Assembly: GCA_043801595.1 (NCBI GenBank) | Contig: JAZDLW010000018.1 | Location: 1 to 18,208, forward strand | Origin: Candidatus Aenigmatarchaeota archaeon | Lineage (GTDB): Archaea > Aenigmatarchaeota > Aenigmatarchaeia > JACPZZ01 | Reading direction: 5' to 3' | Length of the DNA stretch: 18,208 nucleotides | Shown here: piece by piece, positions 4,568 to 8,772 of the stretch | Position numbering within the stretch: position 1 is the first letter of the stretch | Layout: the number at the start of each line of letters is the position of its first letter | Program-made: the position numbers and the translations under genes | The notes under the pieces: generated by a model | What the model was told of the DNA's origin: nothing | What the model saw: only the letters and a program-made list of their open reading frames with translations | Databases searched by the model: none

Positions 4568-5287
4568 ATGACAAAATTGCTGCGTTATTCCGTGTACCTG
4601 TTTGATGCAGACGGTCCGCTGATCAATTCCGTCGACGCAGCACTCGCAACAACGAATCGTGTGCTGGAAAGTTTTGATCTTGAACAGCTGAACCTCGAAA
4701 CATGGCGGGCGACTCCAAAATCGCCTTGGAAAAGGTTTTATACCGATCACGGCGTGCCAAAAAAAGAAGTGGATGAAGCGCTCAGGCGTTACGTCGCATT
4801 TTTTGGCGAGGTCACCCACACAGCCGCAAAACCGGAAGAAGTGGAGGAAACGCTGATGTTTTTGAGGTCCAGAAATATTGGCGTTGTAACCGACATGCAC
4901 CGCATAGACTGGGATAATTATTGCAACCGTTTTGGATTTGACAAGTACATACACACTGAAGCGGTCATAACATGCGATGATTGCGACGAAAGGAAACCGT
5001 CGCCAAAGCCGCTCTATCTTGCAATGGAGCGATTGGGTGTGTCTAAAAAAAAGATACGTGAGCACAAAGTGCGCGGAATAATGATCGGTGATTCCCCTGT
5101 CGATATAATCGCGGGCAGGGCCGCGGGTTTGGATACAGCTGCGGTGTATTATCATGGGAGTTATAACAACGAAGAGCGTTTGCTTGCGCAAAAGCCCACA
5201 TACATGATCGAACGTATCAGTATAATTGCTGACAGGCAGGCTTTCCGGACAAAACGGGTCAGGGAAAACCCTAGTATACTCGGGTAA
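4568..5287 (+). CDS. HAD-superfamily phosphatase (subfamily IA, Gph/PpaX-like), 239 aa
   Basis: Motif I FDADGPL, motif II VVT, motif III KPSP, motif IV IGDSPVDI, C-terminal KPTYMI. Confidence 0.92.
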   Translation: MTKLLRYSVYLFDADGPLINSVDAALATTNRVLESFDLEQLNLETWRATPKSPWKRFYTDHGVPKKEVDEALRRYVAFFGEVTHTAAKPEEVEETLMFLRSRNIGVVTDMHRIDWDNYCNRFGFDKYIHTEAVITCDDCDERKPSPKPLYLAMERLGVSKKKIREHKVRGIMIGDSPVDIIAGRAAGLDTAAVYYHGSYNNEERLLAQKPTYMIERISIIADRQAFRTKRVRENPSILG

Positions 5288-5302
5288 AAATCGCGAAAAG
5301 GC

Positions 5303-6229
5303 TCATTTCTTGTTTATCAATTCCAGTAAATTCTTCTTCACAGCAGGCAGATTCGCGGCAACGGCAGCTGTAATGTTTCCTGTTCCAGTTTCTGCGGTTG
5401 TCAGGCCTGTTTCGTCTATGCACACGTCCATTTTGCGGAATTCATACAATTCGGGAAACAAAACCGTGCCAAGCGTTACCGGATCATACATGAGCGTTTC
5501 CACTTTTATTCCCAGCGGCTCAAGGTTGCGTTTATTGTGTGTGTATCTCGCTTTCACCATACTCAAAATGGTTTTTTGCGCTGCAGATCCGTCGGCAAGT
5601 TGCTCGAAATCTTCCAGTGTAAACAGGTCCCTTGACCAGAGGTTTTTTCCGATCATTTTTATTCCGACTCCCGATCCCAAAACCTCTCTTGCGGCTTGGG
5701 GATCGCATTCGAAATTATACTCCGGCATAAGCGCTTCGTTGTAGTGCATCGTGGTTTTTTGCGAATAGCCGCCGACATGGCCGCCCATCATGTATACCGA
5801 TTTTATTAATTTTGGATCCACGCTGTGCAAAACTGTTGTCAGGACAGTCAGGGGTGCGATCGACAATATCGAGATATCGCCCGGATTCGTTTTAATGGTG
5901 TGCACCATGAATTCCTCCCCGTCCGGATTTATTCCGAACTCCTTGTCCGTTGCTTTAAGTTCCGAATCGGTCAGGAATCCGTACGCGGCCTCATGCATAT
6001 GATAGGGCGAGTGCGGTCTTGCTTTCGAATGGTTTCCGTAAAACACCGGTATGTCGTTCTTGTCCATTATGTCAAGAAGTTTTCTTGCGCCCTTTGCCCT
6101 TGTTTTTGCATTGCCATAAGTGGTAATCACGCCTTCGCATTGCAATCGCGGGTCTTTAAGCATGTACAATGCAACCATATCGTCGCAGTCGTTCAAGGGA
6201 TCGGTTACGACTAAAAGGCGTTCTGGCAT
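5303..6229 (-). CDS. Nucleoside hydrolase (IU-NH family), divergent active site, 308 aa
   Basis: TDPLNDCDD Asp cluster, TTYGN, APLT, YMMGG, EYNFECDP.AA, YDP, and C-terminal G.T motif. Confidence 0.9.
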   Translation of the reverse strand: MPERLLVVTDPLNDCDDMVALYMLKDPRLQCEGVITTYGNAKTRAKGARKLLDIMDKNDIPVFYGNHSKARPHSPYHMHEAAYGFLTDSELKATDKEFGINPDGEEFMVHTIKTNPGDISILSIAPLTVLTTVLHSVDPKLIKSVYMMGGHVGGYSQKTTMHYNEALMPEYNFECDPQAAREVLGSGVGIKMIGKNLWSRDLFTLEDFEQLADGSAAQKTILSMVKARYTHNKRNLEPLGIKVETLMYDPVTLGTVLFPELYEFRKMDVCIDETGLTTAETGTGNITAAVAANLPAVKKNLLELINKK

Positions 6230-6250
6230 AAATCCTATAGATTAAAAACA

Positions 6251-6277
6251 GATAAAAGCCTTTTATGCATTTTTATC
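6251..6277. promoter_or_regulatory. Back-to-back TATA boxes of the nucleoside hydrolase (-) and second HAD (+) genes
   Basis: Minus-strand TTTTATC (6251-6257) starts 28 nt before ATG 6229. Plus-strand TTTTTATC (6270-6277) starts 29 nt before ATG 6299. Confidence 0.5.
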
Positions 6278-6298
6278 CTTTGCCTTACTTCTATTCTC

Positions 6299-6949: not shown

Positions 6950-7909
6950 ATATTTTTTCGGGTCTATGTTTTCAACGCGAAGGTTGGCAAATTTGTTTCC
7001 CTCCTCCGCGCATACGTGCACGTTTTTTCCTTTCAGGTATGCGTTTAGAAATCCAGCGGCAAAAGCGTCGCCCGCGCCCAGCGTGCTGACGATTTTTTTG
7101 TTTTCCGCAGGCAGCAAAAATCCTTCCTTTTTGGTCTTGACATAACAGCCCTGTTTTCCAAGCGTTATGCAAATCACTTTCGGTCTGAACTCGTCCAAAA
7201 TCTTTTTGGAGGCTTTTTCGCGGTTCTTATAGCCGGACAGCAGGTATTTTTCGTTTTTGTTTATGAAAATTATATCCGACGAGGACAAAAGTTCCGTTAT
7301 AAGCTTTCCATTTTCGGAATTTTTGTCCTGTGCAATCACCTCTGCGTAAAGCCTGCCTGGCGAAACGCTGACGATTGCGCCGGCTTTTTTTGCTTCCTTT
7401 GCCAGTGCAACCTGCGTTTTAAGAGAATCCGGCGATTTAAATGAGGCGAACGGCGACGAGTGAAAAAGTTTGCACGACCTCGCGGTTTTTATTAATTTGT
7501 CGTTGATTTTTATGTCATCGCTGACCCCTTCTTTGAAAAGTACCGAGTATTTTCCGTCCTCGTGTAAAATTATTCCGCAGCTCCCTGTCTGTCCGTCAAT
7601 TTTCGTAATGATCAGTTCGATTTTATGATCCTTCAGGCTATCTTCCATGAATTTTCCGGTTTCATCGTTTCCCAGTTCTCCGATAAATGAGCAGTTCCAT
7701 CCTCTTGCGGACAAATCCGTTATCGTGTTCGCGGCCGAGCCTCCAGCGCGTTTCAATTCAAAATTAAGGAAAGGCAGGTAATTTTCGAACTGCTCGACAT
7801 GCATGCGGCTTTCTTTTTCTATGAGCATCATCAGTTCGTTTTCTATGCCCGGTTTTATTGTGTAAATGACATCCTCGTTGAGTGCGCCAATTCCTACGAT
7901 GTCTGCCAT
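6917..7909 (-). CDS. PfkB/ribokinase-family carbohydrate or nucleoside kinase, about 330 aa
   Basis: IG...ED, GGSAANT, G.LGNDETG, INKNE, ITLGKQG, and anion hole STLGAGDAFAAGF. Start placed at ATG 7909 rather than TTG 7924 because of TATA spacing. The 3' end overlaps the HAD gene by 33 nt. Confidence 0.93.
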   Translation of the reverse strand: MADIVGIGALNEDVIYTIKPGIENELMMLIEKESRMHVEQFENYLPFLNFELKRAGGSAANTITDLSARGWNCSFIGELGNDETGKFMEDSLKDHKIELIITKIDGQTGSCGIILHEDGKYSVLFKEGVSDDIKINDKLIKTARSCKLFHSSPFASFKSPDSLKTQVALAKEAKKAGAIVSVSPGRLYAEVIAQDKNSENGKLITELLSSSDIIFINKNEKYLLSGYKNREKASKKILDEFRPKVICITLGKQGCYVKTKKEGFLLPAENKKIVSTLGAGDAFAAGFLNAYLKGKNVHVCAEEGNKFANLRVENIDPKKYLLQVKLQQFA

Positions 7910-7930
7910 GAAATTACACTCCAAAACCTG

Positions 7931-7974
7931 ATTTAAAAGCGCTTTCCGGCAGCCATTTCGATCGGGTTTAAATA
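7931..7974. promoter_or_regulatory. Divergent TATA boxes of pfkB (-) and third HAD (+) genes
   Basis: Minus-strand GAAAGCGC-TTTTAAAT (TATA at 7931-7938) starts 29 nt before ATG 7909. Plus-strand TTTAAATA (7967-7974) starts 29 nt before ATG 7996. Confidence 0.6.
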
Positions 7975-7995
7975 TCTAACATTGATTCGCTATGC

Positions 7996-8772
7996 ATGAG
8001 CGGTCATTTTGGCGTTTATCACGATGTTGACGGTTGCGCATTTGTCGGCCACGACAAGCGTATCGTTTACAGGTCGGTATTCTATTGCAAATACAACGAC
8101 GCTGTTTCAACACCGGTTGTTTTGGATCGTCTTTTGAAACATGGTGTGGTAGACAAAAACGTCGTAAAAATGTTCGAAGCCGAACGCGGAGACATAAAGA
8201 CGCCTGCAGACATTGTCAGGCTTGGCGAATATGCGCGGTTTGACCAAAAAGTAAGTATGCTGGGAAAAACAATAACAAAAGAAGCGCAGTCGGAAATCGA
8301 TTATCGTGCAACTGAAAATCTCTCTTTGGAAGCGTTTTACCAGTCTTTGCGCGAAGCAGTGCCAACACCGGGCCTTGAAGATTTTGCCGGCTGGACCAGG
8401 TCCAATTGCGGTAAACAGGTTATCGTAACCGACGGCTGGGATCTTGTCGGGAGCTATCTGGCGGAAATAATAGGAGCGGACCGCTGCGAGGGTTCTGTTC
8501 CTATATTCAGGAATGGAAGGTTCACCGGCGAGGTTCGTAAAACAGGTGATAAAAAATCCGTGTTAGACAGGCTTTTAATAGAGGTTGATGCAACTTATCA
8601 GGATTCAATAGGCATAGACGATGCAAGTCCTGTTATTGCGGATTTCGGCCTTTCAATAGCTTTTTGTCCCACAAATTTCAAGCTGCGGGAAAATCCAAAA
8701 ACAATCGTGATCGAGGAACCGCATTATAAACATGTGCAAAAAGCCGCTGAAGAATGGCTCGCGAAGCGTTAA
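7996..8772 (+). CDS. Divergent HAD-superfamily hydrolase, phosphoserine-phosphatase-like (IB), 258 aa
   Basis: HDVDGC motif I, PTPG, IVTDG motif [14 protein letters not shown] motif III, atypical motif [17 protein letters not shown]. Confidence 0.75.

Follow-up and report, generated by a model that had tools for sequence, protein, structure and literature searches.

A genus-restricted gene block between map and cdc48 in Aenigmatarchaeota with a possible role in nucleotide recycling

Gene content and arrangement of the block

The window analysed in this study, 18,208 nucleotides long, is contig C4 of G000, the 814-kb genome (86% complete) of an Aenigmatarchaeote, a tiny symbiotic archaeon. Between map (2972-3847) and cdc48 (8769-11069), five intact open reading frames (ORFs) encode the HAD-IA phosphatase HAD1 (4568-5287, plus strand, 239 amino acids), a divergent inosine/uridine-type (IU-type) nucleoside hydrolase, NH (5303-6229, minus strand, 308 amino acids), a second HAD-IA phosphatase, HAD2 (6299-6949, plus strand, 216 amino acids), a kinase of the PfkB/ribokinase superfamily, PfkB (6917-7909, minus strand, 330 amino acids from the ATG common to the orthologues), and HAD3, a phosphatase of the SerB-like (HAD-IB) type whose cap is enlarged (7996-8772, plus strand, 258 amino acids). 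The first-pass annotation had proposed a five-gene HAD/NH/HAD/PfkB/HAD cluster at 4568..8772 with these flanks, and both the ORFs and the domain searches agree. The locus is real and restricted to the genus, and it is read here as an apparently undescribed variant of known nucleotide recycling.

A block is present between map and cdc48 in all seven genomes of the genus (G000 and the sister genomes G001-G006), with all five genes together in three. The gene order of G003 is identical to that of G000, while G001 has the same five genes and one insert, split over two contigs. G004 has NH, HAD2, PfkB, and HAD3 only; HAD1 and the pentapeptide-repeat protein gene (PF00805), which lies at 3968..4531 on the plus strand in the window, were not found there. 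In G005 and G002 the block consists of the pentapeptide gene, HAD1, HAD2', NH, and HAD2, and neither PfkB nor HAD3 was found; the G005 block also has a TIKI/ChaN-like insert, and that of G002 spans two contig ends. G006 has the pentapeptide gene, HAD1, three HAD2-type genes, a thymidylate-kinase-like gene, and NH.

NH adjoins at least one HAD2-type gene in every one of the seven genomes, and these two are regarded here as the core. The pentapeptide gene and HAD1 (accessory module A) are present together in six of seven, the former directly upstream of the latter in each of the six. PfkB and HAD3 (accessory module B) co-occur: both are present in four genomes and both were not found in the other three (80-91% complete), which keep NH and HAD2-type genes and in which no PfkB-family gene was found anywhere; two of these three have the whole locus on one contig. 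A metagenome contig (L109) carries HAD3-PfkB-HAD2-NH in the order of G000, and homologue matches to NH, PfkB, and HAD3 that seemingly share contigs suggest further copies of the locus. The NH and HAD2 trees give matching groups (G000 with G004, G002 with G005, and G001 with G003 and L109). The map tree has no supported (starred) branch; therefore, no order of gains and losses is claimed. The ratios of non-synonymous to synonymous substitution (dN/dS) of the least saturated pair are 0.15 for NH, 0.14 for HAD2, 0.12 for HAD1 (G005/G002), 0.10 for PfkB, 0.10 for HAD3, and 0.05 for map, pairs with G000 being near synonymous saturation. The five genes are under purifying selection.

The clustering exceeds chance. 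When 795 roughly called genes were shuffled 200,000 times, tandem duplication being ignored, NH came to lie at most two genes from the only PfkB of G000 in 914 shuffles, and near PfkB with at least two of the seven HADs nearby in none. The strand order is +,-,+,-,+, with two divergent pairs (NH/HAD2 and PfkB/HAD3) and convergent 3' ends, one overlap being of 33 nt. Since the strands alternate, a single transcript is ruled out, and the reading of the block as an operon was rejected. By a rough gene call, neighbouring genes lie on opposite strands in 285 of 763 pairs, and full alternation is seen in 22 of 679 five-gene windows. The NH/HAD2 spacer (6230..6298) has a TATA-like box, TTTTTAT(A), some 25-30 nt before the HAD2 start, which by eye is kept in the seven orthologous spacers, and the PfkB/HAD3 spacer (7910..7995) has two AT-rich TTTAAA-type boxes, kept in the five orthologous spacers compared by eye, with TTAAAT as the second box in G001. 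The genes may thus be transcribed separately from divergent promoters. A short palindrome, TAAAAGCCTTTTA, lies in the NH-HAD2 spacer at 6251-6263. No convincing shared operator or mobile-element ends were found in the block, where the repeats are short two-copy matches and the spacers, by eye, share only TATA-like boxes. The GC content across the block is flat (0.445-0.476); therefore, there is no sign of recent transfer.

Range outside the genus

A synteny search, as suggested with the first-pass annotation, linked the orthologues across the genus, all five of them in only three of seven genomes, and did not find the linkage outside it. The NH query had a match in six of six sister genomes and in none of 54 other relatives; PF01156 occurs in 13 of 301 genomes of the phylum, eight of the 13 being outside the genus in other clades. 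PfkB is common (184 of 371 genomes), and HAD3 belongs to a small family: at E<=1e-10, a search of 1.84 billion representatives gives seven clusters, its profile has only five weak matches outside the genus among the 371 genomes, and its six distant relatives (P0144-P0149) come from contigs 1.4-4.7 kb long. None of 80 distant PfkB loci, none of 30 PfkB loci of the phylum (among the 184 genomes with a match), and none of 23 outside HAD loci contained a relative of NH or HAD3. In the searches made, the linkage of the locus is restricted to one genus.

At six of the 22 outgroup map loci, map and cdc48 are no more than 1.5 kb apart, and at three they stand tail to tail with nothing between. This closeness indicates that the block was probably built up within an older map-cdc48 junction. 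As a separate observation, intein-like inserts break cdc48 in G004, G005, and G006 (L009:2906-6703, L011:4292-8092, and L014:10503-14108), the interrupted ORFs reaching 1,266 amino acids and the G004 copy having a stop or frame break; the copies of the window and of G002 are uninterrupted. Farther along the window, a metallophosphoesterase-like gene (16794-17714, 306 amino acids) converges on radB; G002 and G006 retain it.

Predicted enzymes of the block

NH matches PF01156 with 117.8 bits (cut-off 34.2), and its model, with a predicted local distance difference test score (pLDDT) of 86.4, has a template-modelling (TM) score of 0.80 to plant nucleoside hydrolases (6zk3). The window copy keeps the Ca2+/ribose residues D10, D16, D17, N40, N164, E170, N172, and D249, which we take to be equivalent to D10, D14, D15, N39, N160, E166, N168, and D242 of the family; D10, D16, D17, N172, and D249 are found in ten of ten NH copies of the genus. 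By these features NH is assigned to the IU-type nucleoside hydrolase family, with a nucleoside-type substrate presumed, and is very likely an active N-glycosidase. In RihA-type hydrolases a catalytic His precedes the last Asp; NH has Y248 at this position, or Phe in genus copies. The first Asp of the DxDxxxDD motif is missing (V8 here, and a hydrophobic residue in all ten genus copies), and the motif has a one-residue insert, with N13-D14 in the window copy; according to the available part of one source, this Asp is only nearly conserved (10.1101/574913). NH stays below the equivalog cut-offs of RihA, RihB, RihC, and UriH (61.4 against 382 at best; UriH 48.9 against 450). K195 and R228, placed by alignment to the plant enzymes, are invariant in the ten genus NHs and absent from four distant ones, whereas N164 and E170, the equivalents of the 5'-OH contacts, vary.

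Unrelated NH loci of the phylum lie beside HAD, Nudix/MazG or NAD genes in four of eight cases. Aenigmatarchaeota NHs of a different clade (L018:759-3828, L019:221-2539, and L020:64-2340) are located in an NrtR/NAD kinase/Nudix operon, next to NadE, or next to Nudix and MazG-like genes.

HAD1 and HAD2 exceed the PF13419 cut-off (86.6 and 90.2 bits, respectively), contain HAD-IA motifs I-IV, and have DxD in motif I in their window copies; the motifs of HAD1 are D13-x-D15, T108, K143, and G174-D175..D179. The two are about 25% identical and group together against four other HADs of G000 with weak support (86/89). HAD1 orthologues (54-62% identical) occur in five of six sister genomes, and HAD2 forms a genus-expanded paralogue group with one to three copies per locus. 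In the closest HAD2 relatives from beyond the genus (L154-L156, L170), motif I reads D-x-S-G, so that the second Asp has been lost more widely. In family f13, a HAD-IA gene lies repeatedly beside a gene that by eye resembles geranylgeranylglyceryl phosphate synthase (L157, L159-L163, L166-L169, L171, L173), which hints at a lipid phosphatase. HAD3 has D10-x-D12, T145, K186, and G206-I-D-D209, and falls below the cut-offs of PF12710 (22.9 against 27) and TIGR01488 (24.8 against 45). The profile of its orthologues matches the phosphoserine phosphatase of M. jannaschii (1l7o/1f5s) with an E-value of 1.5e-10, and its structural neighbours in the Atlas are SerB-like (TM about 0.7).

PfkB, the only one found in G000, matches PF00294 with 134.3 bits (cut-off 25.8), and its catalytic motifs are intact: N11-x-D13, G56-G57-S-A-A-N61, N217-x-x-E220, and the anion hole G278-A-G-D281. 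Adenosine and nucleoside kinases have a lid with a helical insert. The PfkB model (pLDDT 93.7) has lid helices at 23-27 and 41-47, and its first 11 structural matches, with Z 35.0-38.0 (best 3ubo and 4k8p, Z 38.0), all come from adenosine kinases or from their homologue in Rhizobium, compared with Z 35.0 for the best ribokinase; this margin is small and partly reflects a longer alignment. The adenosine-kinase-like lid makes a nucleoside likelier as the substrate than free ribose. Since the 22-residue lid insert is absent from the nearest archaeal sequence relatives, the likeness may be convergent and is no proof of adenosine specificity. PfkB is below the cut-offs of RbsK (TIGR02152, 88.1 against 299.65), of both ribose-1-phosphate kinase models (NF053626, 93.9 against 330; NF041134, 60.2 against 500), and of the Thermoplasmatales nucleoside kinase model (45.2 against 450). 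As a matter of judgement, a nucleoside is the most likely substrate, at roughly even chances; ribose is distinctly less likely and ribose-1-phosphate unlikely, something else accounting for the rest. Background on the PfkB subgroups is found in the parts available of PMC8551123 and PMC6240065. A Hydrothermarchaeales relative of PfkB (L032:1726-3685) is directly preceded by a 353-residue HAD that the HAD3 profile does not match, an independent HAD-PfkB pairing.

The thymidylate-kinase-like P-loop protein of G006 (L014:7939-8844, 301 amino acids, PF02223 49.2 bits) is divergent, unrelated to PfkB, and additional to the housekeeping copy; it has a weak PADLOC match to PDC-M51B (E 8e-8). An anti-phage defence system was considered for the block and rejected, PADLOC giving one weak match (HAD2, E 7e-4) among the six window proteins scanned.

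Metabolic setting, interpretation, and known systems

The genes that the first-pass annotation proposed to look for, those of AMP phosphorylase, the e2b2-type isomerase, Rubisco, and phosphoribosyl pyrophosphate (PRPP) synthetase, were found in G000, the isomerase-like protein scoring below its cut-off. AMP phosphorylase reaches 619.7 (cut-off 535) and form III Rubisco 603.6 (cut-off 497.45); Rubisco, the phosphorylase family, and the IF-2B family each occur in five of five genomes tested. G000 also encodes methylthioadenosine (MTA) phosphorylase, which is its only PF01048 gene, adenine deaminase, NadM-like and NadE proteins, and phosphoribosyltransferase-family proteins, two of which have no NCBIfam assignment. 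At G000:C12:2541-9589 (L211), S-adenosylhomocysteinase, MtnA, MTA phosphorylase, and adenine deaminase lie together with two unassigned kinase-like genes between; the NadM-like and NadE genes are at G000:C14:10818-13063 (L212). Since AMP phosphorylase, Rubisco, and PRPP synthetase are present, a phosphorylated product of the kinase would feed their route and not bypass it, and the independence from it that the first-pass annotation had assumed is not supported: the route is the obvious sink. As rpiA was found in only two of the seven genus genomes, and not in G000, ribose 5-phosphate would leave mainly via PRPP and the AMP route. AMP phosphorylase is not known to accept GMP; a route by way of a hydrolase would then have a use of its own. 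In Thermococcus kodakarensis, the ribose of nucleosides enters the AMP phosphorylase/Rubisco route and the bases are excreted (PMC12628685), and the route by way of ribose 1,5-bisphosphate (R15P) isomerase has also been proposed for DPANN archaea (PMC6389311), according to the parts of these sources available.

With moderate confidence, the block is interpreted as a genus-specific, modular nucleotide and nucleoside recycling locus between map and cdc48, made of familiar enzyme types. In its favour are the constant NH-HAD2 adjacency, the co-occurrence of PfkB and HAD3, the matching trees, the dN/dS ratios, and the second nucleotide-type kinase in G006, as well as the adenosine-kinase-like folds, the downstream route genes of G000, and the neighbours of half of the unrelated phylum NHs. 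In the core, HAD2-type phosphatases would take the 5'-phosphate off nucleoside monophosphates (NMPs), and the Ca2+-dependent NH would then cleave nucleosides to base and ribose; the bases may be re-used by the deaminases and phosphoribosyltransferases of the genome, or excreted. In module B, PfkB might yield an NMP, ribose 5-phosphate (via PRPP) or R15P for the AMP phosphorylase/R15P isomerase/Rubisco route, and HAD3, to judge from its co-occurrence with PfkB, may be the opposing or supplying phosphatase. This optional pair could balance nucleoside and nucleotide pools or recover ribose. Since three genomes keep NH with no PfkB found, its more constant role would be to release bases or to dispose of unwanted nucleosides. 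Of the nucleotide salvage or clean-up pathway first proposed, nucleotide-type substrates survive as the likeliest theme; the complete five-gene route is not supported, as PfkB and HAD3 were not found in three of seven genomes.

Several points weigh against recycling. No block gene scores high enough to be assigned to a characterised equivalog. The top hidden Markov model matches of HAD1 and HAD2 are PpaX and phosphoglycolate phosphatase, their scores on the YjjG/YfnB model (TIGR02254) are 29.1 and 40.9 against a cut-off of 159.9, and HAD substrates are not readable from sequence; moreover, the general-acid Asp of motif I is Asn (DxN) in eight of 11 HAD2 copies, with DxA in one. The nearest relatives of PfkB are uncharacterised archaeal PfkBs that score alike on the ribokinase and ribose-1-phosphate kinase models, and the R15P-isomerase-like protein reaches 274 against a cut-off of 314, its gene adjoining that of Rubisco in G000. 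The TIKI/ChaN-like gene of G005 and the unassigned gene of G001 (L012:3892-4644, 250 amino acids, between HAD1 and NH, 63% identical to the product of G000 C21:45359-46099 and without a Pfam match) show that genes with no relation to the block can insert here. In the seven loci read, neither a nucleoside transporter nor a regulator was found between map and cdc48.

Among the other explanations, house-cleaning of modified or damaged nucleotides from the turnover of host or own RNA and DNA fares best, although it is considered unlikely; each HAD paralogue would take one odd NMP, and NH an acidic or phosphorylated substrate. In three of seven genomes NH occurs with no PfkB found, so that it need not serve to recover ribose, and in G006 there are three HAD2 paralogues besides HAD1. 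The invariance of K195/R228, together with the variable N164/E170 equivalents, also fits, as does the AMP phosphorylase of G000, already available for the common NMPs. However, the pocket position of K195/R228 comes from the alignment to plant enzymes, and no gene for modification or repair goes with the block, trm5 and guaA being counted among its conserved flanking genes. A more elaborate and more doubtful version is a sorting station for modified nucleotides of host RNA taken up by an ectosymbiont: the DxN HADs would work slowly, as phosphatases or phosphotransferases, each on a different modified NMP, the Lys/Arg-lined NH would cleave an acidic or 5'-phosphorylated nucleoside refractory to known hydrolases, and the independently evolved, adenosine-kinase-like PfkB would bring usable ribosides, nicotinamide riboside perhaps among them, back into the pool of NMPs.

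A strict linear route from NMP to nucleoside, ribose, and ribose 5-phosphate, using all five enzymes apart from the AMP/Rubisco route, is improbable. The five genes do occur together in three of seven genomes, PfkB keeps the ribose-ring residues N11 and D13 and the GG motif, and this chemistry has been established for yeast, as far as the available text of the source goes (PMC4039369). Against this, the strands alternate, the lid of PfkB resembles that of adenosine kinases, the kinase was not found in three of seven NH-bearing genomes (two with a one-contig locus), and rpiA is missing from the genes found in G000 and in all but two of the seven genomes. It is equally improbable that the site is an insertion hot spot, at which unrelated genes piled up between convergent map and cdc48, with HAD1 and HAD2 as tandem duplicates and PfkB/HAD3 acting on a sugar or amino-acid phosphate. 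The three outgroup loci with nothing between map and cdc48, the inserts in G001 and G005, and the lack of NH or HAD3 relatives at the distant PfkB (0/80), phylum PfkB (0/30), and outside HAD loci (0/23) are what such a site would give; yet the NH-HAD2 adjacency outlives rearrangement in 7/7 genomes despite near-saturated synonymous sites, two different kinase folds occur in the block, and none of the 200,000 shuffles reproduced the cluster.

Scavenging of NAD precursors, in which PfkB would make nicotinamide or nicotinate mononucleotide (NMN or NaMN) from the ribosides while the HADs and NH trim excess pyridine nucleotides, is very improbable: nicotinate phosphoribosyltransferase was not found with models run on five and on seven genus genomes (the same models matched in only eight of 14 control genomes) nor quinolinate phosphoribosyltransferase in five, which leaves no visible NMN/NaMN source beside the NadM-like and NadE genes of G000, and two of the eight unrelated NHs of the phylum are located in NAD operons, but those two belong to another clade (26-27% identity), no NAD gene lies in the block in any of the seven genomes, the kinase-less genomes show the same gap, and hydrolysis of nicotinamide riboside without PncB would waste it. 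For NMN or nicotinamide riboside as substrates, also suggested by the first-pass annotation, the evidence is therefore mixed and weak.

By means of AMP phosphorylase and Rubisco, DPANN archaea are believed to subsist in part on the ribose of other cells' nucleic acids, according to the part of the source available (PMC6389311). The enzymes that feed or clean this route are little known, and the locus offers four testable, lineage-specific enzyme groups. Its weight is limited by the ordinary enzyme families, the precedented chemistry, and the linkage in a single genus, and it would matter more if NH or the DxN HADs had new substrates. The first-pass annotation did not recognise the arrangement as described, and a literature search, which had most subscription papers outside its reach, found no description of it.

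Among known systems, PfkB is like the adenosine kinases 3ubo, 4e3a, and 1lij in the helical insert of the lid, GGS-x-x-N, and GAGD (Z 36-38, root-mean-square deviation 2.3-2.4 over 304-313 residues), at about 20% identity. The uriR-rbsK2-uriT-uriH genes of Corynebacterium glutamicum form a co-directional operon of a hydrolase, a ribokinase, a transporter, and a repressor. The block likewise has a hydrolase and a ribokinase-type kinase; unlike uri, it is not co-directional, no transporter or regulator was found in it, and NH is far below the UriH cut-off. Alternating strands, with no transporter or regulator found in the seven loci read, thus set it apart from operon-type utilisation systems such as rus and uri.

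The cited systems are compared here from the available parts of their descriptions. The pentose bisphosphate/AMP pathway of Thermococcus kodakarensis and DPANN archaea comprises AMP phosphorylase, R15P isomerase, form III Rubisco, and the PfkB cytidine kinase TK1843 (PMC12628685, PMC6389311); its three core genes are in G000, and PfkB kinases are its known feeders. Thermococcus uses nucleoside phosphorylases, whereas G000 has a single gene of that kind, for MTA phosphorylase, and the hydrolase. The rus ribose utilization system of Bacteroides thetaiotaomicron, with RusK1/K2 and RusNH (10.1101/574913; PMC7527073), resembles the block in that a nucleoside hydrolase is clustered with a PfkB kinase in a scavenging role. 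The N-terminal motif of RusNH and other NHs of Bacteroidetes is said to contain an additional Asn and Asp (10.1101/574913), as NH has N13-D14, a likeness by description only, and RusNH was weak on all nucleosides assayed. The rus locus has SusC/D, a permease, and a regulator, with no HAD among the genes named in the available text, whereas the block has no SusC/D, permease or regulator. In yeast, the HAD nucleotidase Phm8, the hydrolase Urh1, and Pnp1 serve nucleotide degradation and ribose salvage (PMC4039369). As proposed for the block, NMP is converted to base and ribose by a nucleotidase of the HAD type and then a nucleoside hydrolase; unlike the block, the yeast system is not presented as a gene cluster in the available text, and its ribose enters the non-oxidative pentose phosphate pathway, the sink of the locus being probably AMP phosphorylase/Rubisco. 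The likeness is one of chemistry. Overall, although it is a member of neither system, the locus appears to work like yeast Phm8/Urh1 and like the hydrolase-plus-kinase core of rus.

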